Sequence record: PZ347661.1
Reading direction: 5' to 3' (one strand)
Origin: a phage
Length of the DNA stretch: 64,000 nt
This document shows, piece after piece, positions 2,702 through 63,178 of the stretch (position 1 is the first letter of the stretch; every line of letters starts with the position of its first letter). A program made the position numbers and the translations under genes. Under the pieces are notes generated by a model. The model had not been told where the DNA came from, did not search any database, and was given only the letters and a program-made list of their open reading frames with translations.

Positions 2702-2708
2702 TCACAAC

Positions 2709-5040: not shown

Positions 5041-5421
5041 ATGTCAAACAGACGAAATGGTAAGTCTATCCTGCAAGGACTGGACTTCAGTAAGCTGGAA
5101 CAAACTGCAATGCTTGCTTTAGGTAAAACTATCCATGACCAAGTGGAGAGTAAAATTGAATTAGATCTTTATGCAACAATGCAGACTCTTATTCAGAAAA
5201 AATGGATTACTAGCAGACTTTTTCCTTCATACATTCCCCCAGAACCTCATCTGAAATCTAAGGTAGACCGAATCATAGATAAGTTCTGGCTTAACCCATA
5301 CGGGGATGATATGCAACTTTATCTGACTCAAATACAAAAGAATCCTCATACTAAGGATGTGTTCAAGGGTAAAAGTACTACCCATCACTACCCCTGGTAT
5401 AGAAGAGGTAGTAAATACTAA
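5041..5421 (+). CDS. hypothetical protein
   Basis: 126-aa ORF after terminator. Confidence 0.4.
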   Translation: MSNRRNGKSILQGLDFSKLEQTAMLALGKTIHDQVESKIELDLYATMQTLIQKKWITSRLFPSYIPPEPHLKSKVDRIIDKFWLNPYGDDMQLYLTQIQKNPHTKDVFKGKSTTHHYPWYRRGSKY

Positions 5422-24568: not shown

Positions 24569-25021
24569 ATGCAAATCATTTTGAACCAGTCCGAAGTAGA
24601 AGCTGCTGTACAGGCTTATGTTGATGATCAAATCAATCTTGCTGGTGACATTAATATTGTCATCAATGCAGATGGTACAGCCTCCGTTGGTATCAACGAA
24701 GAGGTTCACGAAGATACTCCACCCGTGGGAGTAGAGAAGAAAACTCGTCGTTCTCGCAAAAATCCACAGGAAGCTAAACATCGTCCGGTAGAACCAGAGC
24801 CGGAAGAAGCTGTTGAAGAGGTAAAGGTAGAAGAAACCCAGACCTCTACTGGTGGTCCGAACGGGAATTCTACGCCGGAACCTGAAGAAGAAGCAGTAAC
24901 TGAACCAGTAGCACAAGAAGAAGTTGTGCAGGAAGAGGCCAAGAAAGAAGATCGTGAGCTTCCTCCGGAAGAACGACCGGTAACGAAGCCTTCACTGTTC
25001 GCTGGCCTTAAACGTAGTTAA
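24569..25021 (+). CDS. acidic Pro/Glu-rich hypothetical protein
   Basis: 150-aa low-complexity ORF. Confidence 0.35.
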   Translation: MQIILNQSEVEAAVQAYVDDQINLAGDINIVINADGTASVGINEEVHEDTPPVGVEKKTRRSRKNPQEAKHRPVEPEPEEAVEEVKVEETQTSTGGPNGNSTPEPEEEAVTEPVAQEEVVQEEAKKEDRELPPEERPVTKPSLFAGLKRS

Positions 25022-25845
25022 TCTGGTAGGTGGCTCAGAAGCTGCTGCTATTTGTGGTAGTGTTCATAATTCTGATGCTATTGCTTATCAGGATTCTGGA
25101 CGTGTCGGCTCCATACATAGCATTTATCATCACTGTGCTTATACTTTGGAAACTCAGTGATAAAAACGGTGGTGACAAGCCGCCAGACTAACAACAACCG
25201 AACCAGTGTGCAGGAATACTCTCCCCTGTGCATTGGTTCAACTGAGACTAATATGAACAAATTTACTATTCACTGGCTCAATGGAAAGGTTAGTTCTTTC
25301 ATGGGTGGAGAACCTGTTGAAGGAAAGAAAGCATTTCACATTGAATCAGAAGGCTGCAAAATCTTAATACCATACGCTTGGTATAAAGATGGTGAAGTAG
25401 AAGCATTAAAAAAGAGTAGTTAATATCGTGAAGGGTTCTGTTAGAATCCTTTGAGATAGGAACTCCTATCATAACCTTTCTTAACTTAATCTTTGCCGTA
25501 TGGCACTGACGCTAGGGGTGGCCCCCCATCCGTCAGGTAGACTATTTTAAGAATGGGTTATCACAGCAAATGTAAAGCAACATTCGGGTTAATCAATGGC
25601 CTCTCCCTATAGGGGCCATTTCTGAATCTTAGGCTATATCCCAAAGGTTAATATCTTTGGGATAAGGCTTCAGATCCCTTATCAACTAACCGCTCAATGT
25701 TGAGCATTTTAATCACATAAGCCCCTATATGGGCTGGGTTAAATGTCGGATAGCATAGCTACCTACAGCATCGAATTGTTAGGTCTTACATGCAAACTAA
25801 ATCATAGGGTAAAGAGGGACTCGTCCTCCCTCCCCTATTATAATG

Positions 25846-25915
25846 GTCGGGGTAGCGCGTAGGCATGTGCAGAAGGTCGCTACTTCTCTCGCTGGTTCGA
25901 ATCCAGCCCCCGACC
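25846..25915 (+). tRNA. tRNA-like gene, 70 nt, isotype uncertain
   Basis: Acceptor GTCGGGG/CCCCGAC 7 bp; T-arm GCTGG-TTCGAAT-CCAGC; D-stem GCGC/GTGC; anticodon stem AGAAG/CTTCT with loop GTCGCTA (possible CGC); short variable loop. Confidence 0.4.
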
Positions 25916-26466
25916 TACTGACATCCTATCAATGAGTACATTAGGCTAACGTGCGGAGGTTTACACTGTAGCCGGTGTAGGTGGAGAAGACGGCAGGATA
26001 GCTACCTGTGCTTAGTGTACTCTTTGATAGTTTTCGTAAGCGATTATGCGGTTTTTTAGAAACGAACCAATAACATAAATGCAAACGATGATGTTGTTCT
26101 GATGGCGGCGTAATAGCCTATAAGTCAGCAAGGTCTTCCGATTCCTTGTAAACAAATTCGGCGCAGTGGCCCGCTGTGATTAATAATGGGCACACAACAG
26201 GTAAGAGCATTTAGGCTACTGAGAAATCATCCGAGGCAATCAGACCTATCTTCTGTTAAGTGCTCTTTCCGTTGTGGTGAATGTGCAGGCTGATGCGCAG
26301 TGGGACGTGGCTGACTCACGAGGATGGCTCAAGCGAATAAGCAAGCTCGACGCCGCCGAATAAGCGCCTTATGCCGGAGATCAGTACCGGCCACCACAAC
26401 AAGTCCAGACGATATCTGAGTGACTATAAAAACAGATGGAGCCAGGTGGAATCCCTGGCAACTAAT

Positions 26467-26532
26467 TCCGGTGTAGGTACTAGTGTCGTGCACGGCATGA
26501 GTGTTCTGGTTCGAGTCCAGACGCCGGAACCA
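26467..26532 (+). ncRNA. tRNA-like minihelix element with encoded CCA
   Basis: TCCGGTG pairs with CGCCGGA; T-arm TCTGG-TTCGAGT-CCAGA; discriminator A then CCA; body only about 63 nt, too short for a full cloverleaf. Confidence 0.3.
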
Positions 26533-26534
26533 AT

Positions 26535-26658
26535 TACCAGTTGCACGAGATGGCTTGATATGTTCAAGTTTGGACTAAGTGTGACACCGCTAGATTGGAG
26601 AGCTGCTGCGGTAAGCTATAGACTCCAACCGGGGGTTCGAATCCCTCACTGGTAACCA
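26535..26658 (+). ncRNA. tRNA-like element with oversized body and encoded CCA
   Basis: TACCAGT pairs perfectly with ACTGGTA; T-arm GGGGG-TTCGAAT-CCCTC; discriminator A then CCA; about 121 nt between acceptor strands with internal hairpins. Confidence 0.3.
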
Positions 26659-27102
26659 ATTCAAAGTAGCATTGCACTAATCCATCCCGGAGTTCAAAGG
26701 CCAAACATGGAGCAGTGCTACTTTGAATTAGAAAGATTATGGGGGTAAGTCGTAACCATACGACGGCGTAAGTACCAGATGAGACTTCTGGACGCCCCTA
26801 CCAGATTTGGGGTGTAACAGTTAGATCCAGTTGCCGGAAGTGCTATTCTAGATACGCTGCCAATGTGTGAACGGTAAGGCTGTACAGGACTCGGACTCCC
26901 ACCTCAAACCAAAGTCGCCAGGTACTTATGGCAAACGGGTAGTAACGAACTAGTCATTCGTCAAACGCCCAACCTATTATGAGTCAGCAAGAACGCCTTC
27001 ACTTAAACTTAAACAAAAAAGCTTAACGCAATAATTATGTAGGGGTATGTAAGGATTGCGAAGAAGGAGCCAGTTAAAGTCTGGCATGGCTCAACCTATT
27101 AT

Positions 27103-27176
27103 GCCCACTTAGCTTAGACAGGGAAAGCAACCGACTAATAATCGGAAGGTCACTGGTTCAAATCCAGTAGTGGGTA
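27103..27176 (+). tRNA. tRNA gene, canonical cloverleaf, anticodon loop CTAATAA
   Basis: Acceptor GCCCACT/AGTGGGT; T8 A9; D-stem GCTT/AAGC with 9-nt loop containing GGG; anticodon stem CCGA/TCGG; 5-nt variable loop; T-arm ACTGG-TTCAAAT-CCAGT; 74 nt. Confidence 0.55.
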
Positions 27177-27491
27177 CTTATTTGCTGCAATATTCCCATA
27201 GGGAATGGTGCCGTATACGCCACCTAGTTTCTGGTGAAACTCCAGATGCAGCAATCCATTCAGCAGTAACATAGTCCTGATTGCATTGCACTCTAAAGAC
27301 AACACTGGTAAGACAGTCCAGTGACTGCTAATGTACTGTTATTCCCCTCGACGGGAATTTCGCTAGTGAAGGTAACACTTAAAAATCCAAACCTACGTCT
27401 TACTACTATCGGGCTATCAACCCACAGTCGCTTAACACACTAGTGGTAGTAGTTTGACGGCCTAGCCTCGTTAGCTGCGTTAAAGCTACTA

Positions 27492-27517
27492 AGTCCCTCT
27501 TCGGAGGGACTTTTTTA
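27492..27517 (+). terminator. rho-independent terminator
   Basis: AGTCCCTC-ttcg-GAGGGACT followed by TTTTTT. Confidence 0.75.
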
Positions 27518-27687
27518 TTTGAGTATTAATAAATGGATATTCAGGATGATTGACCTAATTTCTACTCCGTATGCCTATGAGGTAACGGATAACCGAGGAC
27601 ATAAGTACTTGGTATTTGCAGGTAGCGTAGCCTATAACAACGCAGTAATGTTTAAGTACAAACTCAAACCACTCTATGAGGCTAATA

Positions 27688-28068
27688 ATGGCAACAGTAA
27701 GTAAAGAAGCAATCGAAGCTAAGATTAAGAGCATTTACTTTTTCAATGGTGCTGACGCAGTGAAGTCTGCATTCGTTGATCCATCTGCACTTCCAGCAGA
27801 TGATTTGGCTAACCTGGGTCTGACAACTCATTGCATTATCATCCTGGAAAATGGATTCAAAGTTGAAGGCGTATCCGCCTGCGTAGACCCGGCTATCTAT
27901 GATGAGCAAAAAGGTCGTCAGTATGCATATGAAAATGCATTCAATAAGATTTGGGAATTAGAAGGTTATCTGCTACGTCAGGCACTGCATGAGAAAGAAG
28001 AGACTGCTAAAGCTCTGGCTTCCTTTGCAGAAAACAATACCTGTGATGGTGGTGGTTGTACAATCTGA
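27688..28068 (+). CDS. hypothetical protein
   Basis: ORF with start at MATVSKE (27688); 126 aa. Confidence 0.4.
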   Translation: MATVSKEAIEAKIKSIYFFNGADAVKSAFVDPSALPADDLANLGLTTHCIIILENGFKVEGVSACVDPAIYDEQKGRQYAYENAFNKIWELEGYLLRQALHEKEETAKALASFAENNTCDGGGCTI

Positions 28069-28187
28069 TTCAAAGGTGTATGGTAGTTTTTACCGAAAGG
28101 TACTGAACTACCCGACAAAGTAGTAAGGCTCAAGAAGCCAAAACAAAACAAGCCCTCCTAGCGAGGGCTTTATCATTTGAGGTAGTT

Positions 28188-28679
28188 ATGTCAGAAGAAA
28201 TTAAAGTCCATTTCACCAATTATATCGGAACCAAGTGTGTAAATGGTTTCCCGATGAACAAAGAAACATACTGCAAACTTCGTGGCTGGAATGTACCTGC
28301 TAAAGAAGACCCACTAGAAGAAGGTTATTTAGTCGAGTACCCAGACTCTAAGTCCAACCATCCTCAGTTCCGTGGCTATATTAGCTGGTCACCTAAAGCT
28401 GCATTCGAAGCTGCATACCATGACGTAGAAAAAGGTTGTACCTTTGGTCATACAGTAGAGCTTCTCAAATCAGGCTTCAGAATGACCCGTAAAGGTTGGA
28501 ACGGAAAAGGAATGTATATCACCTTAGTATCTGGTGAAAATTGGGCCATGGATAAACATGAAAATACCGTTTGTGAGAAACGGGATTGGCTGGGTATTAA
28601 AACCGTTGATAACCAGTTTATGCCATGGGTTCCATCTCAATCAGATGTATTAGCAGAAGATTGGGTGTTAGCTCAGTAA
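28188..28679 (+). CDS. two-domain protein with C-terminal DUF2829 (Tad2-like) domain (putative)
   Basis: C-terminal TFGHTVELLKSGFRMTRKGWNGKGMYITLV ... PWVPSQSDVLAEDWVLAQ matches the DUF2829 pattern as recalled; N-terminal ~80 aa has no recognised motif. Confidence 0.45.
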   Translation: MSEEIKVHFTNYIGTKCVNGFPMNKETYCKLRGWNVPAKEDPLEEGYLVEYPDSKSNHPQFRGYISWSPKAAFEAAYHDVEKGCTFGHTVELLKSGFRMTRKGWNGKGMYITLVSGENWAMDKHENTVCEKRDWLGIKTVDNQFMPWVPSQSDVLAEDWVLAQ

Positions 28680-28685: not shown

Positions 28686-28710
28686 AAGCCCCTCATTAGA
28701 GGGGCTTTTT
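28686..28710. terminator. bidirectional rho-independent terminator between convergent genes
   Basis: AAGCCCCTC-atta-GAGGGGCTT with T-run on + strand and A-run upstream, so a U-run on - strand; lies between + gene end 28679 and - gene end 28714. Confidence 0.7.
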
Positions 28711-28713: not shown

Positions 28714-31700
28714 TTAGTTAGTGAGGTTGAGCCAAGGGTTCAGGTTATGAGCACGTAAGCCTTGACCGAAACCGAAGGAGTAACCAAGGTTGCCTTGTGC
28801 AGCAATGCTAAAGATGTTGTCCTGAATAGGCAGGCCAACGTTACCAAACATAGTAGGAGTTGGAGCCAGCATAGCCATAGCAGCATGTACAGGGTTGTTA
28901 CGAATCATGGACACTGCAACTTTTGCGGAACGAATCTTAAAGTTGTAGAACCACATAAGACCAACGCTTTCCATATAACCACGGAAGCGTCCTGGCAAAC
29001 GGTCATAGTTAATGAACTCTTCCGTCACACGTCCAAGTGCTTCTTCACGGGTTTTACCTTTACGCTTAGTCAGTTCATCATAGATGATCGCTTTAGCAAT
29101 AAAGTCAGAGTACTCAACCGTCTTCTGGATACCCTGGAAGAGAGCAGTATCCTTAGTGATAAGTGCATAACGACCTGCATTGCGTACAGACTTAGGCAGC
29201 TTATCAGCCAGCTTATCCATGTATTCGTGGAGTTTGCCCTCAGTAATCAGGATGTCATCACGTCCAATACCAGCATCTGCAATTGAGGAGAACTCACCTG
29301 CTTCTAGCAGAGGCCAGATACTCAAACGCTTATGACTATCCGTGATGGACTGAATCTCAGCTTTCAACTTACGAATCTGGTTCGGGTTAGTAGCTGCACG
29401 TAATTCTGCTTCTGCATCTACCTGACGTAAACGAGATTTCAGATACTGGTTAATCTCAGCAGTCTTCTGTGGAATGCTCTTAGCAATGTTCTTAACGGGT
29501 ACACCACGAGCAACCATCTGATAAAGGTTAGCCAGGAAGTTAACAGCAGGTACGACTACTGACTTAACTACAATCAGAGTCTTAGCTTCTTTAACTAAGT
29601 TTTGAACCAGGTTCTCACCACCCATTACATACTTGTAGGCACGGTTGCCGAATACACCCAACATAGCCTTCTTGAAGGTATCCAGCGTTTCTGGGGACCA
29701 ACGAGAATTACCAGACCAGGCATCACCAACGGAAGCTGCACGATAACCAAGAGCATCATTAAGCATGTCACGACGTACCCACAGCTCACCTGGGCCAAAC
29801 AGACTTTCTGCTTTCTGACGTGTTTCACTGTTCATCAGTTTAAGAGCATCGGCAGTTACTGGGTCCAGTTTAGAACCAAGAAGGTTAACGTACTGAGACT
29901 TATTAGAAGCAGACATCTTAATGTCGTTCTCATACATGCTATACAGATTCTCAATTAGCATATCGTTGAAACGCTGGGCCTTGGCCTCTTCTACCTGACG
30001 ACCACGCCATACACCAATTGCACGAGCAAGATGGTTCTCACCCTCAATGTGCTTCAGCATGTTAGGGTCAATGGATTGCTCATAAGCAACCACATTACCA
30101 TTGGCATCATATACAGGCAGAAGTGGTTCATTACCTCGTTCACCACGAGCCAGTGCTTTGGTGATACGGTCCACGGAAGGCTTGTCAGTAATACGACCTG
30201 CTACCATGGTTCCCATCGTAAAGCCTGTACCAAGGTCTACACCACCAGCAGTATTACGAACGTTCTGTAAGATACCCTGTGAGAATGGAGCCTGTGACTG
30301 TACTGGTGCAAAGTAGTAGCTACGTGCTGGACCACGATTAGCAGAGCTACCCTGATAAGTACCCAGACGTACATAAGACTTCTCAATCAAATCAGCAAAT
30401 TGATTATCTTCAGCAACAATCAGGTTAACACCTTGTTTGTTCTCACCAGGGATATACCCTTTGTACTGGTTCAAGGTTGCACGCGAATCAGACTTGGCTT
30501 TAGCCATTTCATCCTTACGTTGACCAACCAGGTAAGAAGTAGCAAAGTCCATACCTTCAATTTCTGTCTGAGCCAGTAAAGATAACATCTCACGGTCAGA
30601 TTTATTCATTGCTTCCAGTGCATACAGGGTAATGAGTTTATCCAGTTGAGCTACATCAACAACAGAGCGTGTAGTCTTACGCTCACCCAGCAAGCGTGAA
30701 ATTGCAGTAGCATTACGCAACAAGTTATTTCCGACTGTACCATTAATCATGTACTGAGCCAGTTGCTTAGATTTACGGCTAATCAGATGCCAGTTACGTC
30801 CTGCTTGTTTCTGCAAATCTGCTTCCAGTTTATTAACCTCACGGTCAACAATCTTCTGGTCAGACAACAGGTCACGAATTTCAGCCAGAGACATAGTGTC
30901 ACGCAGGACAGCTAAGTCAGTTTTACCCATACCGGTATGCATTGCTTTCCACTCAACATTAGTCAGCTTACGGCTGAACTTAGATGCGATAGTGGTAGGC
31001 AGGTGTTCACGGAACTGTTGACGGTCAGCCTGTACCTGTGCACGTACTGCTTTAATCAAATCATATACAGAAGCATTACTCTTAGTACGACCGATTATGT
31101 CATTAACCAGGTCATGGAACGGTTGCCATACTTTACCCTGGTTCATTGCAGCCATAACACCTTCAGCTACGATTGAACCATTCTTCTCTGTAGCAATAGC
31201 AGCTACCAGTTGTGCAGCATGAGCAGCACCTTTAACCAATGGGTTCTTGGTATTAGCTGCAACTTCACGAGCACCTTCCAAAGCACGGGTAGACAGTACA
31301 TCAATAGAATCCACCAGATACTGGTTAGCACGGTCAATAGCATTACCGGTAGGAGTAGCAACGGAATCATAGAAGGACTCTGCATTAAGACTGGTCTGCA
31401 TAATTGTCTGAGCTAGTGCATCCATACCTTCTTGTACGTTAGTGGCTTTAGTATCGCCTGCTACACGGGCATTCAGACTAGCCATTGCAGCAGTACCGAT
31501 GTTAGTCAGCATTGCATCAACAGTATTGCCTGACTTCTTATCTGCTTTCATAACAGGAATATCAGCCAGTACTTTACGTACCTCTTCACTTACCATTGCC
31601 AGACCAACAAAGGTAGGCAGCAAGGAAGAACGACCCTGTGCATCAAACTCAATGTTGTTAGCACCCATGATGGTATCGAACTTCTGCTGTGCATAGTAAC

Positions 31701-34700
31701 GGTCAGCAGGGTTAGTACTATCTGGGTCAGCCATGAACGATTCAACAGTTAGGTTCTTAGTAACGTGTGTGTAGTATTCCTGTGCACGAGCCATGGCAGC
31801 TGGGTTAATAGCAGCCTCGGTAGCCAGTGCAGCAACAATGTTAGTGAAGAGACGCTGTTCCTGCATATTCATGGTGAAGCCATGAGCCTGAACATCACGA
31901 GTTACTTTAGTTGCATTCACTACTGCATCAGAGAACTTACCTTTACGAATTACTTGCTGTACTGGTTCTGAACCAATGTAGTCAGTAATCAGTTTATCGA
32001 AGGTTTTTCCTAACTCTTCCAGACGAGTATTGTTACCGTATGCTTTGTTATGGAACAGGGTAGTGTCCTTAGCTACAGCAGCAGTAGGAGCCTGTCCACG
32101 CATAACTACAGCAGAGTTAAACAGTAAGCCAGAGAACATATCATCTGCATTAGACGGAGCTTTCTTACGTCCAAATACCAGGCGTTTGATTGCTTCATAT
32201 ACAGCCTGAGCCATAGCTTTAAGTGCAGTGGTTTTCTTCTGCTTACCAATCAGTTCACGGTTAGTTAAGCCCCAAGCCATGTACTCATTCAATGCAGCAG
32301 CTTTAGCCATTGCTGGTTCAATGAAGCCATTGGACAAGTGACCATTAATGGTATTCAGTGCATCAGCATATGCTTCACGTACTACCGGAGATTCATCCTT
32401 AACATCCAGAGTACGGAATTGGTTCATCAGGTCTTCAATATTCTGGACAGCTTCATTAGGAGTACCCTCATAGTGAGCCAGTACAGATTCAAAAGTAGAG
32501 GCATGTACTAATTCATGAACCAGAGTCTCTAAGGAAGGGGTAACTAAGTAGATGGTCTTATCTTCAAAGTTAGTCCAGCCATATGCATTACCAGCTTCAG
32601 CAGCTTCAATATCTTCCGGTGCAGGGCGAGTAATATTCTTCTCAATAGCGTAGGCATCCAGTTGAGAAGGTGTACCGTAAACAACCTTATAGTCTTTAGC
32701 AGCAAGAGATTTCTGTATTTCTTTCAATACTGCTTGCTGTTCAGGAGACATCTCTTTAGCCAGCTTAGTGATAGCAGTATTAGACAGCAGACGTACACCA
32801 GACTTCAGTACACGACCTACCTTCTCCATAGCTGGTACAACTTTCACCGGCACTTCCTTCACTGGTTCTGCCTTCGTTGGTTCCGCTTTAGCAGCACGTA
32901 CTGCTTCACGACGCTTGTTTAGTTCAGCATCAAACAGCTCGTTCAGCTTAGCTACTTGCTGGTCTACAGTCAGACCTTCCAGAGAGATTTTACCGTTGTT
33001 CACATAAGGAGCACCTACAGCAGCCATCTGGTCAACAGTGACCTGTACCTGGTCCATTACCTTGTGACGAATATCTACACCCAAAGCAATGTTACGCAGG
33101 TTACGCTCAATCAGTGCAATACCAGAATCTCTAATCATAGAAATTTTATAATCTCTATCACCATCTACTCTGGCAATATGAGCACGTTGCTCAAAGTCTA
33201 AAGCAGACTTTGCAATAGCATCTATTGCTGAATCGGACAGCTTATTTAAATCAACATTCTTAACAAACTTAGAGAAAGACTCATATACATTCTTGATAGG
33301 GTTACCCTGCCAGGAAGTATATACAGCCTCATTAGCTTTACGGCTTGCATCAGTAATGTCATTAATACCAATGTTCATACCATCAAAGATTTTCAGGGTA
33401 TTCTTCGGAGCACCTTTCATAGTAGAAAGAGTCTGCATCATCATGCCATCACCAGTACCGATGGTCATAAATGGAATACCTGCAACACCTGCTTGCGAAG
33501 GAGCATAGATGCTCATTGGCACACGCATACGGTCATCTAAGTTGGTGGCCAGTACTTGGTTAGCAACATCAGTGTTTTCACTACCAGCAATGTAGAAAGT
33601 CTGTGAGCCAGTCTTAATCATTGGAGCCAGTGGTGCTAAGCTATTCTGGATTTCATTCAGTTCTTTCTGTGTTAAGAAATCGCCTTTTTTCCATGTTGGG
33701 TCTTTTTCTTTTTCTGCCAGCTTAGCCTGTACTGCCTGTTGGAACATATCCTGCAATACCAGAGATTGTATCTGAGTAGCCTTCTGCAAGTTCTCAGTAG
33801 AGTGCATCAACCCTTCACCAACAGTAAATCGGATACCTTGTCTCATTGGCTCAACAAAGAAATGCAGCATATTCTCTTGTAAGTTCTTCAGAGCATCCCC
33901 GGATACGGTAAACTCCTGAGGATTTAACTCACCAGTCAGAACACCATCTACTTCCTTAATAAATAACCTACCTTTGCGTTTGGCTGGAATCTTGCCAGTC
34001 AATGCTTCCATAGAAGTAAGGAAGGTATCCAGCATAGCCTGAGCATCAGCTTCAGAAGCAGCCTCCTTACCAAACATCGCCATAGCTGGGGAAATGCTAG
34101 GGTCAGCAGCACGGGCTTTTAGAACGTCGCTTAAGCGTTCATAGATGGCGTCAGTAATTGCACTTACCATCTTGCCTGCAATACCGCGAGCACCAGAACC
34201 ATAAATGGTAATAGTCAGTGGGTTTTTAGCGATACCACGCTTCAGGTCCAGAGTACCATCTTCATTAAGATTGAAGTCTTTGATGAACAGGTCCATTAAC
34301 TTCTGGAGATGGTCCATCTGATTTATAATAGGAATATTTTTGCTGTAAGTATTGCGTAGTTCATTCAGATGGAATTGCAGACTATTGGTAGATGCTTCAT
34401 ACAGGTCAACATTATCATCCTGAGTATGATGCTCATTCATAGTCTTACCGGCTTTACCGAAGAACAAACCACCTTTAGCAGTATTCTTAATCCAGTTTGG
34501 GGTGAACTTACCACCAGTCATTAATACCATTGCGTTGATTGGCCCGTTGGTTACACCATCGGCTTCAACGTACAGTGGGGTATTAAAGTTGGCTCGGTCA
34601 TCACTGTTAAGGTAACGGGCATATTCCATAAGAGCCATGAGAGCTACAAATGATTTATCATTACCCAGAGATGTTCTCAGGATATCCACTGCGTCAGCAG

Positions 34701-37700
34701 GCAAGTATCCAGACTTATCAAACTCAACCATCATATCTACAGCAGGCTTCAGTTTACCTTCCAGAGCCTTGGTAAGTTCTTCTGACATAGTTTCACGAGT
34801 CATTTTATGAACTTTGATACCCAATGCCTGAGCCAGACCTAACTGGAAGCCAGAGAAGTCTTCATTGTTTTGGTTCGATAAATCCAGAGTAGCTTTAGTA
34901 GGTAAGATAGCCTCACGAACCAGCTTAGCTGATTGAGGATTGTATTTGCCCAACATCTGCATACGACCAACACGGGTCATATTGTAAGCATAGTGAATAG
35001 GTACAGAAGAAATGTCTTCACTCTGTGCTCTCACCTGTTCAATAACAGAGAACAGTTGGTTGTAAGAATCTTCTACAGAACGATTCTTACCTTCCAGAGA
35101 TTTAGCATGGTTCTTATTAAGTAAATCCTTATCCAGAGTACCTGCACCCATCAGTTCAAGGATACGGTCTTTACCTAATGCTTCATAGAACTGAACCATT
35201 GGAGTATGTACAAAGAACTCAGTAGCCTGTTCTGCTTTAAGAGCAGCTTTCTGTTCTGGAGTATTACGGACAGCAGGGTTACGTAACTGAGTAGGAGCCA
35301 CTGAAGGAATATCATCACCCAGGTACAATTTCTCTTCTGGTTCTACGAGGACAGCTTCCTCGATAGCAGTAGGGAATTTGTTAATGGCATCGTTATCATC
35401 CAGTTTCTCAATGGTATACAGACCAATAGTCTTATTAGATTCTGGGTCAATTTCAGACACATCAAGCATAGACTCTTTAACTTCACCCATCTCAATGAGA
35501 GAAGACAGAATCTCTGTAGCCATTGCCATTGGAATACCTTTGGTATAACCCAATGGTGCATCAGCATTACGATTAAGTCCCCAATAAGATTCAATCTTTT
35601 GAGCCAGTGAGTTAGTAGCTTCTACTAAGGTTTGTGCATTCTCAAATTCTGCGAGGATGCCCTCTGGTAACAAGGAAGCATTTACACCAGTAATTGCAGC
35701 CACATCCTGCATGTCTTTAATAGCAGCATTCTGTGTAGCAGTAAGTCGCCATTGCAGACCAGCAAGTACAGCAGTCTCTAATAACTGGTCATTGAACTTA
35801 AAGGTATCACCATCTTTCTCTACGATGTTAAGCAGTTTGCCACCTACCCAACGGTTAGCCTCAGTACCCTCTGCAAAACGTTTACCAACATTCTTGTTAG
35901 CAAGGAACTTAGCCAGACGATCAGACAGAGTAGTCTTCAGAGTTTCACCAAAATCAAATAAGTCCTGGTAACGCTTAATCACATCACTTGTGAGAGCGTT
36001 ATTTTCTCTTTGAGTGAATGCTTCAAAACGAGCAGCAGAAGACAATGCTTTCTTAACATCAGTCAAAGGAGATTCAGAACCAATGGTACGAGACTTAGGT
36101 TCTTCTGGAAGAGAAAATGCTTTAAGGAACTGGTTCGGTGTCTTGTCGTTGTTATAGACAGGGAACACTGTTTCTATTCCCGATAGAGGTTTACCGCCAA
36201 CGGTATAGTCTGCTTTCAGTTGAGCCAGTGATACTTCTTCCTTCTCGACGTTATTGGTATTAAGCCCAGATGTATCTACACCAATCTGAATCAGTGCATT
36301 GTTTGCTTCTACGAATGATTGAACAGTATTAAATTGTTCCGGGGTCAGCTTCTGGTTATCAAACAGTTGCAAAGATACAAATGGTTGTTCACTACCTTTG
36401 TAGAAGGTAGAGCGAATAGCACCAGTATCTAAAGACATATCACGATAACCATCATGACCAAATACATCAGACAGACTGATATGGTCACCATTAGAACCAA
36501 CAACAGTACCATCAGCAAAGAGCCATGGACTTTCCCTACGGTCACCATACTTATTAAGAGTATCTTGTGAAATAGTATTCTCTTTCACATAAGAATCTCT
36601 TTCAGATTCAGTAGGCTGTTCAACGGTATCCTGTTTTTCAGACTGGTTCTCAGGTTCTTTTACAGTCTGTGGTTTAGACTCTTTATTAGTAGGTTCTGTT
36701 TTAACAGCTTCACTAACAGAGGGTTTAGTCTGTACAGTAGGGGTAACTGGTTCCTGTTTCGTAACAGGAGTTTCATCAACCTGATTCACTGGTTCATTGG
36801 TCTGTTGGGATTGAGCAGCATCAAGATTGCCCTGACGGAACTCTTTAACTACCTGGGCAGCAGGCTTGTCCAGACGTGAATCCAATGGGGTAACTTTCAC
36901 ATGAGAAACATTAAGCTCCGGGTAAGCCGTAGCAAGTGCGTTAGCAATATCAGCTACGGTCTTGGCTTCCAGTCCTACTTGCTGGGCAAACTTAACAGAC
37001 TTGGTATCATACGGATTGACACCGAGGCCAGTACGACTACGTACCCATTCACGCGAGGGAGTAAGAGCCTGATAATGGACAGACTTATTCTTATCCGCAT
37101 TCCCAGAAATCAGATGCTCATTCAACGCTCCGACCTTATTCTGCATGTGCTGGGCGAACTTCATAAAGTCGTCGAGATAAGCGGAAGCCAAATCGAAGTT
37201 ACCAGAGTTGTACGCAGAACGAATGCGTTTAGCATGTTGCAACGCAGAGTACTGGCCTTCATTAGAACGAGATTCGTCGGTTTTAATTTGTTTACTAACA
37301 ATGTCTTGAGGACGTAAGCCTAGTTCTTCTGCTTTAGCGTCAAATTCTCGTGCTCCTTGCAATAGAGCAGCAGCAGATTGCAGGGCAGCACGCTGACGAT
37401 TCCCCAGTGTAATCTTACCTTCACTCGCATGTTTCAGAACCATGTTCACTGAATCTGCATCCAGTACTTCTGGAGACACATCAGCAGCCATAGCAATATT
37501 GTTTGCCTGGGCTTGGTTAGCTTCTTCAGTAGCTTTCAGTTTACCTGCTTCAGCCTGTTCCTGAATCATGGAATGAATGGCACGGAATGCACGGAGTACT
37601 TTCGGTGTATTCTGAACATTAGCCATCAGGCCGGAGAACTGGTCAACGATATTAGCAGCAGGAGAACCCTGTTCCAGATTAGCTAATGCACCTGGGTCAC

Positions 37701-39531
37701 GGTTAATGAAGCTATCCATAGACATGATGTTGTCATACATCTGGATTGCAGCTTCCATTTGAACGTTAGGGTCTTCAGCAGTATTAACCAGGTCAGCCAT
37801 CTTCTGAATAGCTTCAACACGGTTAGTGGAACCAGAAACAGCTTCACGGATTGCAGGACTAGCTTGTTCCAGTTCTACTGGGTCAAACTTCATTGCCTGA
37901 GTTAAGTCAGCAGCATACTGAGTAGCAGCAGCTTTCTCTTCAGGAGAAATATCCATTGCATCTACTGCTTCCTGAACAGTTGCTTGTGCTTGTTCTGCCT
38001 GAGCAGTAGCTTCCTGTGCAGCAGCGTTAACTGTAGCATCTGATACAGGGGATGCTTGTTCATTACGCTTAGCAACTTCTTCTCCACGTTGAACCAGAAT
38101 GTTAGTAATAGGTGAAGCTACTTTTGCTAATGCCTTACCAGCCAGAGAAGCACCAGCCAAGGTAGTACGTACAGCAGGACCAACGGCAGCACCAGCAGCC
38201 TTAACAGTTGCACCAGGAGCTTGAGCAACTCCAGCAGAACCGAAGCCGTACAGTGCACCCAGACCTGCTTGCTCACCAACACCTTTGAGGATGTCACGAG
38301 ATGCATCAACATTACCTTGGATTGCCTTGTTCTGTGCAAACTGACTTGTACCAGACTGGATACCTTCTTCTACAGTCTCACGCAGCATGTTGGAACCAGC
38401 ACCAGCCAGTGAACCTACCTTAAGTGGATTAAGTTCAAACTTGGATACCAATGGAGCAGTAAGAGCAGCAACTGGAGCAGTTAAACCAGCAGCAGTGATA
38501 CCTGTTTCAGATGCAGTCTGACGTCGTGCCTCTTCAGGAGTTAAGCCGTCTTTAATGTGTTGTTGGTATACAGGAGATTTAGCAGCCAGTTCACTGAATG
38601 GCATTTCCATAATTTCATTGGCAGTCTGTTGATATGCACCACCAGCTTCCATACCACCAATTGCTATAGCAGGTGCAGCAATACGACCAGCAGTCTGTGC
38701 AATCCGTGCAGGACGTGAACCTAACTCAGCAGCTAAGGTAATACCCTTAACAGCTTTGTCCCCACCTACCATTACTTTACCAAGTGCGGATACACCACGG
38801 ATAAGTGGACCACCAGTGAAGAGAGAACCAACGCCTTCAGCCAGACCATCTGTAGCAGCCATGCCATTGGACAAGGTATTAGCAACAGAATCATAAGCAT
38901 CCCGACCAATTCGAGACAGAGAAGCAACGAGTTCACTTTCTCCTTTAGCAATATCCTGCTTATAGAGTTTCTCATTTTCCTGTGCAGATATTACGTTCTG
39001 GTTCTGTACTACATTACGACGAGCATTCAGTGCATCAGACTGTAGGTTGTGTACACCTTTATTCAACCAGTCAAGACCGGAAGCAATGGATGCCCCGGCA
39101 TTATCATTGACCAAGCCTGTGCCAAGAGCAGCAATGCCCCCAAGGGTATTAGCAACACCAAGACCAACACCAGAAAGGGTATCACCAAGTGCTTCACCAT
39201 ATGTGCGACTCTTAGTTAAATCACGACGAACAGCATTAGCTGCATTGACACGAGCATTGAGAATGTCCATTCCTTGCTCATTGCCATACTTGTTTACGAT
39301 TTCAAGAGGGGAGGCATTAGTAAAATCTGCCTGAATAGAACCTGGGTCAAATGCACCAGCACCTAAGTCACCGGCACGTCCTGCCTGTAATTGGTAAGCG
39401 TTCTGAGAAGTTAATTGGAAAGGGTTTTGCCCTTGTTCAGCTTGTTTCCGAGAGGTTGCAGTAGAGACATCGACTTGCTTAGCAGTAGTGATGCTGTCTG
39501 CGAAACCTGCCAGACGGTCAAATGTTGACAT
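28714..39531 (-). CDS. virion-encapsidated RNA polymerase (N4 vRNAP-like giant protein)
   Basis: About 3600-aa ORF at the head of the late block; central region has single-subunit RNAP-like motifs (VEADGVTNG, KNPLTITIYGSGARG, KIFDGMN); ATG at 39531 with AGGA RBS, alternative TTG at 39549. Confidence 0.85.
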   Translation of the reverse strand: MSTFDRLAGFADSITTAKQVDVSTATSRKQAEQGQNPFQLTSQNAYQLQAGRAGDLGAGAFDPGSIQADFTNASPLEIVNKYGNEQGMDILNARVNAANAVRRDLTKSRTYGEALGDTLSGVGLGVANTLGGIAALGTGLVNDNAGASIASGLDWLNKGVHNLQSDALNARRNVVQNQNVISAQENEKLYKQDIAKGESELVASLSRIGRDAYDSVANTLSNGMAATDGLAEGVGSLFTGGPLIRGVSALGKVMVGGDKAVKGITLAAELGSRPARIAQTAGRIAAPAIAIGGMEAGGAYQQTANEIMEMPFSELAAKSPVYQQHIKDGLTPEEARRQTASETGITAAGLTAPVAALTAPLVSKFELNPLKVGSLAGAGSNMLRETVEEGIQSGTSQFAQNKAIQGNVDASRDILKGVGEQAGLGALYGFGSAGVAQAPGATVKAAGAAVGPAVRTTLAGASLAGKALAKVASPITNILVQRGEEVAKRNEQASPVSDATVNAAAQEATAQAEQAQATVQEAVDAMDISPEEKAAATQYAADLTQAMKFDPVELEQASPAIREAVSGSTNRVEAIQKMADLVNTAEDPNVQMEAAIQMYDNIMSMDSFINRDPGALANLEQGSPAANIVDQFSGLMANVQNTPKVLRAFRAIHSMIQEQAEAGKLKATEEANQAQANNIAMAADVSPEVLDADSVNMVLKHASEGKITLGNRQRAALQSAAALLQGAREFDAKAEELGLRPQDIVSKQIKTDESRSNEGQYSALQHAKRIRSAYNSGNFDLASAYLDDFMKFAQHMQNKVGALNEHLISGNADKNKSVHYQALTPSREWVRSRTGLGVNPYDTKSVKFAQQVGLEAKTVADIANALATAYPELNVSHVKVTPLDSRLDKPAAQVVKEFRQGNLDAAQSQQTNEPVNQVDETPVTKQEPVTPTVQTKPSVSEAVKTEPTNKESKPQTVKEPENQSEKQDTVEQPTESERDSYVKENTISQDTLNKYGDRRESPWLFADGTVVGSNGDHISLSDVFGHDGYRDMSLDTGAIRSTFYKGSEQPFVSLQLFDNQKLTPEQFNTVQSFVEANNALIQIGVDTSGLNTNNVEKEEVSLAQLKADYTVGGKPLSGIETVFPVYNNDKTPNQFLKAFSLPEEPKSRTIGSESPLTDVKKALSSAARFEAFTQRENNALTSDVIKRYQDLFDFGETLKTTLSDRLAKFLANKNVGKRFAEGTEANRWVGGKLLNIVEKDGDTFKFNDQLLETAVLAGLQWRLTATQNAAIKDMQDVAAITGVNASLLPEGILAEFENAQTLVEATNSLAQKIESYWGLNRNADAPLGYTKGIPMAMATEILSSLIEMGEVKESMLDVSEIDPESNKTIGLYTIEKLDDNDAINKFPTAIEEAVLVEPEEKLYLGDDIPSVAPTQLRNPAVRNTPEQKAALKAEQATEFFVHTPMVQFYEALGKDRILELMGAGTLDKDLLNKNHAKSLEGKNRSVEDSYNQLFSVIEQVRAQSEDISSVPIHYAYNMTRVGRMQMLGKYNPQSAKLVREAILPTKATLDLSNQNNEDFSGFQLGLAQALGIKVHKMTRETMSEELTKALEGKLKPAVDMMVEFDKSGYLPADAVDILRTSLGNDKSFVALMALMEYARYLNSDDRANFNTPLYVEADGVTNGPINAMVLMTGGKFTPNWIKNTAKGGLFFGKAGKTMNEHHTQDDNVDLYEASTNSLQFHLNELRNTYSKNIPIINQMDHLQKLMDLFIKDFNLNEDGTLDLKRGIAKNPLTITIYGSGARGIAGKMVSAITDAIYERLSDVLKARAADPSISPAMAMFGKEAASEADAQAMLDTFLTSMEALTGKIPAKRKGRLFIKEVDGVLTGELNPQEFTVSGDALKNLQENMLHFFVEPMRQGIRFTVGEGLMHSTENLQKATQIQSLVLQDMFQQAVQAKLAEKEKDPTWKKGDFLTQKELNEIQNSLAPLAPMIKTGSQTFYIAGSENTDVANQVLATNLDDRMRVPMSIYAPSQAGVAGIPFMTIGTGDGMMMQTLSTMKGAPKNTLKIFDGMNIGINDITDASRKANEAVYTSWQGNPIKNVYESFSKFVKNVDLNKLSDSAIDAIAKSALDFEQRAHIARVDGDRDYKISMIRDSGIALIERNLRNIALGVDIRHKVMDQVQVTVDQMAAVGAPYVNNGKISLEGLTVDQQVAKLNELFDAELNKRREAVRAAKAEPTKAEPVKEVPVKVVPAMEKVGRVLKSGVRLLSNTAITKLAKEMSPEQQAVLKEIQKSLAAKDYKVVYGTPSQLDAYAIEKNITRPAPEDIEAAEAGNAYGWTNFEDKTIYLVTPSLETLVHELVHASTFESVLAHYEGTPNEAVQNIEDLMNQFRTLDVKDESPVVREAYADALNTINGHLSNGFIEPAMAKAAALNEYMAWGLTNRELIGKQKKTTALKAMAQAVYEAIKRLVFGRKKAPSNADDMFSGLLFNSAVVMRGQAPTAAVAKDTTLFHNKAYGNNTRLEELGKTFDKLITDYIGSEPVQQVIRKGKFSDAVVNATKVTRDVQAHGFTMNMQEQRLFTNIVAALATEAAINPAAMARAQEYYTHVTKNLTVESFMADPDSTNPADRYYAQQKFDTIMGANNIEFDAQGRSSLLPTFVGLAMVSEEVRKVLADIPVMKADKKSGNTVDAMLTNIGTAAMASLNARVAGDTKATNVQEGMDALAQTIMQTSLNAESFYDSVATPTGNAIDRANQYLVDSIDVLSTRALEGAREVAANTKNPLVKGAAHAAQLVAAIATEKNGSIVAEGVMAAMNQGKVWQPFHDLVNDIIGRTKSNASVYDLIKAVRAQVQADRQQFREHLPTTIASKFSRKLTNVEWKAMHTGMGKTDLAVLRDTMSLAEIRDLLSDQKIVDREVNKLEADLQKQAGRNWHLISRKSKQLAQYMINGTVGNNLLRNATAISRLLGERKTTRSVVDVAQLDKLITLYALEAMNKSDREMLSLLAQTEIEGMDFATSYLVGQRKDEMAKAKSDSRATLNQYKGYIPGENKQGVNLIVAEDNQFADLIEKSYVRLGTYQGSSANRGPARSYYFAPVQSQAPFSQGILQNVRNTAGGVDLGTGFTMGTMVAGRITDKPSVDRITKALARGERGNEPLLPVYDANGNVVAYEQSIDPNMLKHIEGENHLARAIGVWRGRQVEEAKAQRFNDMLIENLYSMYENDIKMSASNKSQYVNLLGSKLDPVTADALKLMNSETRQKAESLFGPGELWVRRDMLNDALGYRAASVGDAWSGNSRWSPETLDTFKKAMLGVFGNRAYKYVMGGENLVQNLVKEAKTLIVVKSVVVPAVNFLANLYQMVARGVPVKNIAKSIPQKTAEINQYLKSRLRQVDAEAELRAATNPNQIRKLKAEIQSITDSHKRLSIWPLLEAGEFSSIADAGIGRDDILITEGKLHEYMDKLADKLPKSVRNAGRYALITKDTALFQGIQKTVEYSDFIAKAIIYDELTKRKGKTREEALGRVTEEFINYDRLPGRFRGYMESVGLMWFYNFKIRSAKVAVSMIRNNPVHAAMAMLAPTPTMFGNVGLPIQDNIFSIAAQGNLGYSFGFGQGLRAHNLNPWLNLTN

Positions 39532-39597
39532 AGCATGATTCCTGTTCAAACTTATATCGTATAAGAAGATTCACTGTACAGTAAGTGAATGTAAGAG

Positions 39598-39617
39598 AAA
39601 AGCCCCGGATGGGGCTT
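39598..39617 (-). terminator. intra-operon stem-loop (attenuator/terminator candidate)
   Basis: AAAGCCCC-ggat-GGGGCTTT palindrome between the 648-aa gene and the vRNAP gene; T-rich on the - strand downstream. Confidence 0.45.
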
Positions 39618-39634
39618 TATTAGTATGTAAGATT

Positions 39635-41581
39635 TTATCGAGGTTGCATATAGGGAGGTAAACCCTCTGCTAATTTTAGGTAACGTTTAGCACGTTCTTC
39701 ATCTTCACGACTACGTTCACGCTCTACTGAAGCATTAGAACGGAAGTTCTGTGGAACCAGGTTTCCTTGGTCAGCCACTACAGTATTGACAGCAGCATCT
39801 AGTGCAGCCCGTGCTCTTGCTAACTCAGCTTCACGAGCAGGGATAGTAGCAGCAAGCCCACTTTGCCCAGCAGCTACACGACGACGAGTATCAGCAAGTA
39901 AGGCTTCTGCTTGTGTTACCTGGTTCTGGGCATTAGCAATATTACCCTGTACCTGGGTAAGAACATTATCACGAGCAGTAGCTTCAATACCTTCCCCACG
40001 TCGTACCGAACGTGCCAGTTCTCTGGCAACGGTATCGTCAATACGAATTCCATTACCACCTTCCGGTGATTTCCCTGGTGTAAGCGCATCCCAGGTACGA
40101 CCGAGGATACCTTCCGGTACGTTGGTAATAGACTGCTTAAGAATCTCAGCAGCTACAGCAGGAGACTGTCCGGATTCCTGCATAACTTTATTCAGTCGAG
40201 CTATCATCCATCCTTTCTCAGAACCTTTGAAAGCATCCTTAAGAAGACGGTCTGCCACTTCACCAATGGTAGAATTATCACGCAATGCACGAGCATAGTT
40301 AGCAGTAATGGTTCCAGTATTATCTTCCGACTGACGTGCAGCAACTGTATTGCCTGCCATGTTTGAAACTACTTGCTGGGTCTGTAGCTGGTCAATAGGT
40401 GCACCTACTTCTGCCTGTGCAATTAACTGACGTGCTTCACTCCATGGCATGTCCTTATAACCACCCACACCCAAGTCAGGCAATGCTGCCCAAGTCTTGG
40501 AAAGGTTACCATTCTTACGGTCATTGAAGATTGCTTCAGCTATTTTGTCCTGTACTTCAGGAGTCATTTGCTGATTACGCCAACCTGAACCAAGTACTTT
40601 GGGGGCATAGTCTTCCAGAGTAGCTTTATTAATCTGGAATGCACCTACAGGAGAATGACCTTGTGATGGGTTATTAATCATAGTTTGCTGATGATTAGTA
40701 ACCTCTCCCAGTGTCATCTCGGTAATAGGCTTATCAGTAGCAGCAAAGGTATATGTTGCATCATAAGGGGAACCAGAACGAGTACCAGCAGTTCCTGGAG
40801 CAGAGCCAGAAGAAGACGTAGCATAAGTACCAGGGAATCTCTGGTTCACACCTCGCATGATTGCAGCACGTACACCAGGAGAAGCATTCTGCATAGCAGA
40901 CTCTGCCAGTGTAAGAGCATCCATAGGTGTGGAAGCACTACGGAAAATATCAGTCAGTATACCGGATGCAGCTTGCGAATCAGCATCATTACGCTGAGCC
41001 ACACCCAAATCAAAGCGGTTCTGTGCTTGGTTAATAGCCTGACCACCCTGACCTTGAAGACGACTCAGCATATCCAGTTGTTGGTCAGCAGGAAGTGCAG
41101 ACAGTGCCTCACGAGTCTGATTCAATGCAGCATTAACACGGTTCTGGTCACCAGACTGATAAGCCTCAGATAATAAACGGATAGCTGGGGATGCATTATC
41201 TAATGCAGAATCAGTATTCTGTAAACGATCAAAACGATATGCATTGTAATCATTAATTCCCTGCTGACCTTGTTGAGTCAGAAGAGTACCTGCTCGCTCA
41301 TCCAGATTCTGGAGGGTATGTTGGTTTACCAGTGATGGGTCAACTCCCTGGAACAATGCACCAGATGCCAAAGCATTGCGATACTCAGTAGGGTCTTGAT
41401 ACTGCATAGCATTCATCATGACGGCATTGCCAGCCTCCTGCTTGGCAGCGTTCTGGAAGTTACCCAGTGCATCACTTAAGCCGGAGGTGGCGTTACCAAT
41501 CATGCTTCCAAATGTGCGAATGCTGTCACCAACTCCAGAAAAGTTAGGTGCATCAACATTACGCCATGTAATCTGAGCCAT
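39635..41581 (-). CDS. virion internal protein (gp51-like position)
   Basis: 648-aa Q/N/A-rich ORF immediately upstream of vRNAP in the late operon. Confidence 0.45.
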   Translation of the reverse strand: MAQITWRNVDAPNFSGVGDSIRTFGSMIGNATSGLSDALGNFQNAAKQEAGNAVMMNAMQYQDPTEYRNALASGALFQGVDPSLVNQHTLQNLDERAGTLLTQQGQQGINDYNAYRFDRLQNTDSALDNASPAIRLLSEAYQSGDQNRVNAALNQTREALSALPADQQLDMLSRLQGQGGQAINQAQNRFDLGVAQRNDADSQAASGILTDIFRSASTPMDALTLAESAMQNASPGVRAAIMRGVNQRFPGTYATSSSGSAPGTAGTRSGSPYDATYTFAATDKPITEMTLGEVTNHQQTMINNPSQGHSPVGAFQINKATLEDYAPKVLGSGWRNQQMTPEVQDKIAEAIFNDRKNGNLSKTWAALPDLGVGGYKDMPWSEARQLIAQAEVGAPIDQLQTQQVVSNMAGNTVAARQSEDNTGTITANYARALRDNSTIGEVADRLLKDAFKGSEKGWMIARLNKVMQESGQSPAVAAEILKQSITNVPEGILGRTWDALTPGKSPEGGNGIRIDDTVARELARSVRRGEGIEATARDNVLTQVQGNIANAQNQVTQAEALLADTRRRVAAGQSGLAATIPAREAELARARAALDAAVNTVVADQGNLVPQNFRSNASVERERSREDEERAKRYLKLAEGLPPYMQPR

Positions 41582-41593: not shown

Positions 41594-42037
41594 TTAACGG
41601 GTTAATTTATTAGCTGCAATATAAGCATCAGCAGTAGACTGGTCACGGTTCTCTGCAACAGCACGACTACGAGCACGGTCTTCCAGTGCAGTGTTATAAG
41701 ACTTAATCTGGTTATTCAGGTTAGTGTTAGTAACACTCTTAGCAAAGTTCAACTGGTCTTTGGCTAACTTATTGGCCTGGAAACCACTATAGATATTAGC
41801 TAATGAACCAAGTGCACCCAGTCCTAACTGAAATGTGGGTACGTTCATACCCAACTGATTGGCCGAACCAGACATGAACGAAGTAGGGGCAGATGCACCC
41901 AAATTCGTACCCATACCAATAGCTGCACCTGGGTTATAGTTCATAGCCGGGGTATTAAAGTTCTGATTGTTATTAGACATCCAAGACATAGCTGCTGGCT
42001 GTGGGGTTTGGTTGCCTGTTAAGAATGACAAATCCAT
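41594..42037 (-). CDS. virion protein (gp52-like position)
   Basis: 147-aa ORF, synteny. Confidence 0.4.
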   Translation of the reverse strand: MDLSFLTGNQTPQPAAMSWMSNNNQNFNTPAMNYNPGAAIGMGTNLGASAPTSFMSGSANQLGMNVPTFQLGLGALGSLANIYSGFQANKLAKDQLNFAKSVTNTNLNNQIKSYNTALEDRARSRAVAENRDQSTADAYIAANKLTR

Positions 42038-53090: not shown

Positions 53091-53324
53091 AATATTACCG
53101 TAGTTGTGTAGTTAGAATCCCCAATAGGGTCATATCATAAGATGACTCATAGATAATACTTAGTATGATGAGGTACATCCAGACATAGTGTCTGGTATCA
53201 ACACATGGTAGATAGCGTTCAGTTGGGTATGTTTAATATCTCAAGGCAAGTAATTACCTTAACAGCAGTATCAGTTAGGGTAATGCAAACAGTGAACTCT
53301 ATATAAAAAGTATCATTAGTAGGT

Positions 53325-53354
53325 AAAACTAACCCCGCCGAAGCGGGGTTTTTG
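53325..53354. terminator. rho-independent terminator
   Basis: AACCCCGC-cgaa-GCGGGGTT with T-runs on both sides; directly after the 699-aa tailspike gene. Confidence 0.65.
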
Positions 53355-55454: not shown

Positions 55455-55476
55455 AAGTACCTCTTTGTTTTTCTGG

Positions 55477-55500
55477 AAAACCCCTCCGAAGAGGGGATAT
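55477..55500 (-). terminator. stem-loop terminator between tailspike genes
   Basis: CCCCTC-cgaa-GAGGGG with U-run on the - strand. Confidence 0.5.
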
Positions 55501-55511
55501 GTTAATTATTA

Positions 55512-63175: not shown

Positions 63176-63178
63176 AGT

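Follow-up and report, generated by a model that had tools for sequence, protein, structure and literature searches.

Bacteriophage N4 packages about four copies of its giant virion RNA polymerase (vRNAP, gp50), whose C-terminal domain (CTD) is needed for encapsidation. Upon infection, gp52 and gp51 form an envelope-spanning channel of roughly 30-35 Å, through which gp50 follows as 'beads on a string'. The N-terminal domain (NTD) binds lipid. The polymerase domain (Pol) starts transcription at three hairpin promoters in the left end of the genome, the extrusion of which needs host gyrase and single-stranded DNA-binding protein (SSB). Until it is displaced by promoter binding, the CTD keeps the enzyme autoinhibited by way of the plug and the loop of motif B (PMC13492108, PMC13434306). 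In this work we analyze the corresponding gene in a stretch of 64,000 nucleotides from a phage (sequence record PZ347661.1; hereafter the window), where it occupies positions 28714-39531 of the minus strand. We conclude with very high confidence that the gene encodes a virion-encapsidated single-chain DNA-dependent RNA polymerase of a Gamaleyavirus coliphage, which by orthology would follow the N4-type mechanism. It is intact and an ordinary hallmark of its phage type, found here in a phage closely related to sequenced ones, and its one unusual feature is a cassette of 142 residues at the junction between the first linker of the protein and its polymerase domain.

The original prediction, made without database searches, had proposed a giant open reading frame (ORF) of roughly 3600 codons, and this ORF is found exactly at 28714-39549, running for 3611 codons on the minus strand from a mechanically assigned TTG. 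The chance probability of a stop-free frame of this length, (61/64)^3611, is approximately 1e-75. Translation most likely begins with the ATG at 39531, the seventh codon of the mechanical ORF, which is preceded 7 nt upstream by AGGAA and yields a product of 3605 aa, with the stop codon at 28714-28716. The predicted product begins MSTFDRLAGFADS... (MSTFDRLAGF...), resembling the N terminus of N4 gp50, MSVFDRLAGFADS... (MSVFDRLAGF...), and the annotated vRNAP coding sequence of Escherichia phage vB_EcoP-ZQ2 (hereafter ZQ2) spans 10818 nt, the same length as the window gene when read from this ATG. Because of the N4-like N terminus, the length of the ZQ2 coding sequence and the upstream AGGAA, we take the gene to be 28714-39531. 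Several antisense ORFs lie within it (e.g. 28762-29286 and 36901-37317), with sizes expected by chance in a 10.8-kb gene.

On the evidence of its sequence, the ORF is a full-length N4 gp50 orthologue, in support of the earlier interpretation. PHROG 2206 ('virion RNA polymerase') matches residues 25-3604 with E=0. In PDB sequence searches, full-length N4 vRNAP chains (3500 aa; 9PNQ/9PNR/11GP) align to residues 1-990 and 1131-3604, and the mini-vRNAP crystal chains 2PO4, 3C2P and 3Q0A to residues 1130-2214, all with E=0. Alignment to N4 mini-vRNAP and its structures was the check put forward with the original prediction; the window protein aligns with N4 gp50 from end to end. Direct alignment gives 68.4% amino acid identity to N4 gp50 over 3473 aligned positions, distributed unevenly among domains. 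The NTD (residues 1-901; 36829-39531) is 60.8% identical to N4 residues 1-906, the lipid-binding, injection-associated domain of the N4 protein (PMC13434306, PMC13492108). It is followed by linker 1 (residues 902-976; 36604-36828), a low-complexity segment rich in P, T, Q, E and K that aligns to the first part of the N4 linker at 907-1006 (described in PMC13434306). Pol, or the mini-vRNAP domain (residues 1119-2216; 32884-36177), is the most conserved part of the protein, with 73.2% identity to N4. Linker 2 and the CTD (residues 2217-3605; 28717-32883) make up the remainder, with 70.3% identity to the N4 CTD, the domain needed for encapsidation and responsible for autoinhibition in that phage (PMC13434306, PMC13492108, PMC5512222).

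The polymerase-like motifs that had been noticed in the central third of the ORF are real. Pol covers approximately residues 1119-2216 of 3605, and within it the Pfam families of the N4 polymerase domain are matched at 1426-1542 (vRNAP_dom_2), 1558-1640 (vRNAP_plug), 1718-1934 (N4_RNAP_helical, 4e-100) and 2016-2170 (vRNAP_dom). All four matches lie far above the family cut-offs of 27 bits (PF21867, 2e-55; PF21624, 4e-26; PF21894, 4e-100; PF21769, 5e-52), establishing the presence of an N4-type polymerase domain that includes both the plug insertion and the helical domain. Conservation extends to the catalytic residues of N4 mini-vRNAP (after Kazmierczak et al. 2002), all of which are kept: R1523 (N4 R424) in motif T/DxxGR, D1658 (D559) in motif A, R1765, K1769 and Y1777-G1778 (R666, K670 and Y678) in motif B (R-x3-K-x7-YG) and D2050 (D951) in motif C. 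Also conserved are R1218 and W1228, the counterparts of mini-vRNAP R119 and W129, and all tested residues occur in an identical local context. In N4, R119 and W129 read the -11G of the hairpin promoter (PMC13492108). The HExxH motif of CTD subdomain C1 is likewise kept, as HELVH at residues 2339-2343 (32503-32517; N4 counterpart residue 2228).

The proposal that the enzyme is T7-like, which was to be judged by profile search, stands in one part only. It is sustained through the N4-specific polymerase families described above; the generic T7-type RNA polymerase (RNAP) family of Pfam yields no match to the vRNAP protein at E<=1. A PDB sequence search with the palm/fingers half of the protein recovers only N4 chains, and no T7 or mitochondrial RNAP chain at E<=10. 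The likeness to T7 RNAP rests on published N4 structures and motif analysis, and is inherited through the 73% identity of the polymerase domain.

The view that this gene defines the genome type as N4-like holds, since its full-length homology to gp50 is accompanied by neighboring genes that are syntenic with N4 and Gamaleyavirus. The plus strand carries the N4-like genes rIIA/rIIB, a Dda-like helicase, DNA polymerase, primase and SSB. In map order, the vRNAP gene on the minus strand is followed by gp51-, gp52- and gp53-like genes, and by genes for the major capsid protein, portal, lysis, two tailspikes and terminase. The three ejection/plug genes lie directly upstream of the vRNAP gene in the same leftward block and have PHROG matches as well as PDB matches: gp51-like at 39635-41581 (11mn, '66 kDa protein', 9e-116), gp52-like at 41594-42037 (9yf4, '16.5 kDa protein', 2e-46) and gp53-like at 42051-44693 (9yft, 'Gp53', E=0), all on the minus strand. 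The nearest vRNAP gene is that of ZQ2 (Schitoviridae, Enquatrovirinae, Gamaleyavirus), with 94.5% nucleotide identity over its full length and a protein (QWY13177.1) that is 97.6% identical and aligns without gaps; pSb-1, St11Ph5, EC1-UPM and others come next among 85 related phage records. In total, 57.4 of the 64 kb of the window align to ZQ2 with a mean identity of 92.9%, and the best matches of the window are all Gamaleyavirus. Overall, the phage has about 93-94% identity to known Gamaleyaviruses of E. coli. Since no record of the phage collection exceeds approximately 94.5% identity over the 25-kb chunks tested, the window phage probably represents a distinct species of this well-sampled genus. 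In practical terms, the gene fixes the genome as Gamaleyavirus (N4-like) and tells the annotator how early transcription works.

The window corresponds approximately to the last 64 kb of a genome of about 73 kb in N4 orientation, with position 1 matching about St11Ph5 position 9437 and position 64000 matching about 72443 of 72444. Plus-strand ORFs after 61404 are right-end genes, and the left ~9.4 kb of the genome lie outside the window. This missing portion explains why a stem-checked scan, which on N4 recovers P1-P3 at 90-102, 557-573 and 4546-4562, detects no N4-type hairpin promoter, with its stem of 5-7 bp and loop of 3 nt, in the 64-kb window, where the pattern GCGNAGC occurs 8 times against 11 expected. 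When applied to the whole genome of ZQ2 (MW630115.1), the same scan returns exactly three N4-type hairpins, all on the early strand. These candidates map to the minus strand at 5960-5974, 5068-5084 and 1703-1717, ahead of the early genes and the RNAPII subunit genes. Their stems, of the GC-TCC-GC type, are 6-7 bp long, the loop reads TCC on the coding strand, and TATGG or TTTGG comes next. They match N4 P1-P3, and the flanks of two of them are almost identical to those of N4 P1 and P3. The genes for the subunits of RNAPII (gp15/gp16), the heterodimeric polymerase of middle genes, are annotated in ZQ2 and N4 in the part of the genome that falls outside the window.

By orthology to N4, late expression would be expected of the vRNAP gene, which closes the leftward structural block, and a few copies of its product would be packed into the capsid, a step requiring the CTD. 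On infection, the protein would trail gp52 and gp51 through the tail as a series of loosely connected domains, its NTD remaining associated with the membrane and its central T7-like Pol domain refolding in the cytoplasm. Pol would then transcribe the early genes from promoters that it recognizes as DNA hairpins extruded at the left end of the genome, and autoinhibition by the CTD would last until promoter binding. In the window phage, one additional bead would travel along, the cassette where linker 1 meets Pol. Every sequence element on which these steps depend in N4 is conserved; packaging, injection and activity of this particular protein are predicted from its orthology to the N4 enzyme.

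The cassette comprises residues 977-1118 (36178-36603, minus strand), a block absent from N4 and IME11 that accounts for the 105 aa by which the window protein exceeds N4 gp50 in length. Its exact place is the boundary between the low-complexity linker 1 and the beginning of Pol (GIETVFPVY here, GIDAVYPSL in N4). It contains an alpha/beta folded module of ~125 aa, in which the motifs SPWLxADG..VGxxGDH, TGAIRxxF and QKLTPxQ occur. An AlphaFold model computed with an alignment is confidently alpha/beta, with a predicted local distance difference test score of 88.6 and a predicted template modeling score of 0.82. A fold search in BFVD returns only the same domain in the vRNAP of pSb-1; a PDB sequence search gives no match, and no solved structure is convincingly matched. 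The GC content of the cassette is 0.399, compared with 0.443 ± 0.024 for same-size windows in the gene (-1.8 standard deviations), which constitutes weak compositional evidence of foreign origin.

Among phages closely related to that of the window, the cassette is polymorphic. It is found in 29 records of the phage collection, all of them G7C-like coliphages, always inside the vRNAP gene and always with at least 91% identity. IME11, AN24P2, PGN829.1, PhAPEC7, SP5M and other Gamaleyaviruses lack it, with flanks that are ~90-95% identical. The vRNAPs of IME11, N4, the window phage and G7C measure 3450, 3500, 3605 and 3748 aa, respectively. The length of the latter results from the combination of the cassette with a second, unrelated in-frame insert of ~145 aa (VPNGPEMKTAEFTGKQQATYMQIGQYFDYNGKEY...) in linker 1 (within NC_015933.1 42941-45188), located upstream of the cassette and absent from the window phage, IME11 and N4. 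We found no description of this linker-cassette polymorphism in the literature searched, which does not prove its absence elsewhere.

Beyond this group, the module recurs in very different proteins. A word-indexed protein search found no homologues of the cassette, and an exhaustive HMMER search was needed to identify 23 among 1.84 billion representatives. One of these (P0013) has the module at the equivalent position and is itself an N4-like vRNAP, though a remote one, with 23-25% identity in Pol and CTD. The remaining homologues are giant proteins sharing only the module: P0003 (module 64% identical) combines SLT, an SNF2-type helicase, a methyltransferase and LPD39; P0004 (62% identical) combines ParB, a methyltransferase and LPD39, and its gene follows tail genes beside P22-type antirepressor and Arc genes; further module-bearing giants carry LPD38, LPD22, InPase or a TrwC relaxase. 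Such domain combinations correspond to the polyvalent proteins described by Iyer et al. 2017 (PMC5512222). A degenerate DNA pattern of the core motif locates 16 IMG/VR loci, 15 of which are confirmed by a hidden Markov model: 7 G7C-like vRNAP genes, 1 N4-like vRNAP of greater divergence, in which the module occupies the same place, and 7 that share the module only. Across the family (alignment A1), residues S17, P18, L20, G24, D32, H33, R56 and Q82 are invariant, and none of the 21 members examined against Pfam, including LPD1-39, has a curated match at E<=1. A weak similarity of a different kind links NTD residues 282-473 (window ~38113-38688) to the N-terminal regions of two DarB-like proteins, P0003 (E=4e-4) and P0004 (E=0.02), and this shared stretch may be a common injection or membrane module.

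Two alternative readings of the protein as a whole can be weighed against its interpretation as an active virion polymerase. One is that of an RNA polymerase in the style of T7, synthesized after infection and left out of the virion, a reading in favor of which the literature assigns the catalytic core to the T7-like family on structural grounds. We regard this as highly improbable, because the protein retains the full N4 NTD and CTD, required for injection and encapsidation, its gene is embedded in the leftward structural block beside gp51-gp53, and T7 RNAP itself shows no sequence match to it. The two thirds of the protein that are non-catalytic, and that serve packaging and ejection in N4, could instead suggest a polymerase-dead structural or ejection protein descended from a vRNAP. 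The conservation of all tested catalytic and promoter-binding residues in an identical local context argues against such a pseudo-enzyme, as do the status of Pol as the best conserved part of the protein, at 73% identity to N4, and the presence of N4-type hairpin promoters in the closest relative, ZQ2; the probability we assign to it is close to negligible.

Regarding the cassette, the data identify it as a real, folded and horizontally exchanged domain at a permissive linker of an injected protein, and most likely as an accessory cargo domain that would be delivered together with the polymerase. Its location in a flexible linker, the variable length of that linker among relatives (with vRNAPs of 3450-3748 aa) and its absence from some of them are also consistent with a passive spacer, an additional 'bead' that would adjust the length of the linker to packaging or ejection and be inactive in the host; this is a possible reading, to which we give less than an even chance. 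Against it, the polar residues S17, P18, D32, H33, R56 and Q82 are kept down to 23-30% identity, a pattern more suggestive of a site for binding or catalysis than of a spacer, and the module is also met in proteins composed of effector domains. The invariance of these polar residues across unrelated contexts is why we favor a role as cargo or effector over one as a spacer. The presence/absence polymorphism among close relatives, the slightly low GC content and the occurrence of introns and homing endonucleases in other G7C-like core genes (bioRxiv 10.1101/542787) would further accommodate a selfish element, such as a mini-intein or the remnant of a homing endonuclease. Such an origin is very improbable for a cassette that is in frame and stop-free and whose homologues occur at varied positions in unrelated proteins without conserved junctions. 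An intein or homing element was rejected as a candidate, with neither Cys/Ser/Thr ... HN splice-junction residues nor Hint, intein or endonuclease Pfam matches in the 21 members. Returning to the cargo role, we put forward the tentative proposal, which we consider somewhat less than evenly probable, that linker 1 of Gamaleyavirus vRNAPs is a site where cargo domains can be exchanged, with IME11 having none, the window phage one and G7C two. Under this proposal, the module of the window phage belongs to an uncurated family (SPWL...GDH...TGAIR...QKLTP) that moves between the injected polyvalent proteins of phages and plasmids unrelated to each other; it would enter the cell on the polymerase and act there as soon as infection begins, against a defense system or on nucleic acid, for example. 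The cassette points to a widely distributed, uncharacterized domain that enters cells together with phage and plasmid DNA. Moreover, since the 'beads on a string' of N4 vRNAP must thread a channel of ~35 Å, natural variants with zero, one or two additional beads at this linker provide a ready-made test of channel tolerance.

The location of the gene at the start of the late block, as originally described, is correct in map order and does not apply to transcription order. The minus-strand block is read leftward from 61232 down to 28714, and the vRNAP gene is therefore its last and promoter-distal gene. A bidirectional intrinsic terminator at 28686-28707, whose 9-bp stem has 6 GC pairs and which carries runs of T on each strand, is common to the vRNAP gene, which ends 7 nt before reaching it on the minus strand, and to a convergent plus-strand gene ending at 28679. 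The latter (28188-28679, 163 aa; phrog_872, of unknown function) has no ZQ2 counterpart at this place (28179-28678), where ZQ2 has two smaller ORFs. At the other end of the vRNAP gene, between the stop of the gp51-like gene (39635) and the vRNAP start, a GC-rich terminator-like hairpin on the minus strand (AAAGCCCC-ATCC-GGGGCTTT followed by TCTCTT; 39593-39618) has an equivalent in N4 at the same place. It precedes a conserved minus-strand leader at 39539-39558 (GATATAAGTTTG..AGGAA ahead of the ATG), containing a -10-like TATAAG at 39551-39556 and the ribosome-binding site AGGAA at 39539-39543. The leader is nearly identical in the window and N4 (counterpart region L005 10626-10710, hairpin included). 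Hairpin and leader may together represent an attenuating terminator followed by a late promoter, an arrangement that suggests an attenuated or separate late transcription unit for the vRNAP gene. It would be in keeping with N4, for which vRNAP is reported to have a low copy number compared with gp51 and gp52 (PMC13434306).

Several observations concern other parts of the window. An ORF-poor stretch extends over 24900-28200, between the gp47-like gene and the genes converging on vRNAP. It holds one solid tRNA, which ARAGORN calls as tRNA-Ile with the unusual anticodon AAT at 27103-27177 (Rfam tRNA, 63.7 bits); ARAGORN also makes a weak call for tRNA-Ala(CGC) at 25845-25916 (Rfam, 31 bits, below threshold); a further sub-threshold tRNA/tmRNA-like signal covers 26010-26162. 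In the late region, the two tailspike genes (53355-55454 and 55512-58253) form the main region without similarity to ZQ2 (53310-57153). Three other phage records match part of 39600-64000 with at least 99% identity and, if these matches fall in the tailspikes, they would suggest recent exchange of a receptor-binding module. The final ~820 bases of the window (63177-64000) show no similarity to ZQ2. Given that the St11Ph5 alignment stops at its final base, the end of the window is probably the right genome end of the source record.

Comparison with other systems places the window protein within a broad range of polymerases and injected proteins. It would share with crAss-like phi14:2 gp66, the phiKZ vRNAP and the P23-45 TMP-RNAP the use of a virion-packed polymerase that transcribes the first genes; these enzymes have unrelated folds, multisubunit-like or RNAi-type, and bear no sequence relation to it (PMC13434306). 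With the single-subunit RNAPs of T7 and mitochondria it would share the right-hand fold and the motifs T/DxxGR, A, B and C, as given by the N4 structures (PMC13492108) and conserved here, and it differs from them in being about three times larger, in its predicted packaging and injection and in the predicted use of hairpin DNA instead of duplex promoters. Polyvalent proteins (Iyer et al. 2017, PMC5512222), such as the P1 DarB-like SNF2-methyltransferase giants, resemble it in their size, multi-domain makeup, delivery with DNA and HExxH metallopeptidase-like domain, and two of the module-bearing giants carry the cassette domain itself at 62-64% identity; outside the cassette, the resemblance is limited to the weak NTD match (E=4e-4). 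N4 vRNAP was already counted among polyvalent proteins through its HExxH domain, and the reported fusions to N4-like RNAPs comprise MPTase, lysozyme, PBECR1 and ART, with the cassette domain unlisted (PMC5512222). The window protein falls within the same class, as it combines the HExxH domain with a cassette domain common to other such multi-domain proteins. The closest characterized system is N4 gp50 (AAO24831.2; PDB 9PNR/11GP for the full-length protein and 2PO4/3Q0A for mini-vRNAP). The two proteins are collinear over their whole length with 68% identity, present the domain order NTD-linker-Pol-linker-CTD and have identical catalytic, promoter-recognition and HExxH residues; their genes share a convergent gp49-like gene, gp51-53 upstream and the hairpin and leader before the start codon. 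N4, an Enquatrovirus rather than a Gamaleyavirus, differs in lacking the 142-residue cassette. The Gamaleyavirus vRNAPs of ZQ2, IME11 (YP_006990621.1) and G7C (gp50, YP_004782180.1) agree with the window protein in architecture and genome context, and that of ZQ2 also in length and in the presence of the cassette. The cargo of linker 1 differs within this genus, amounting to no module in IME11 and AN24P2, one in the window phage and two in G7C.

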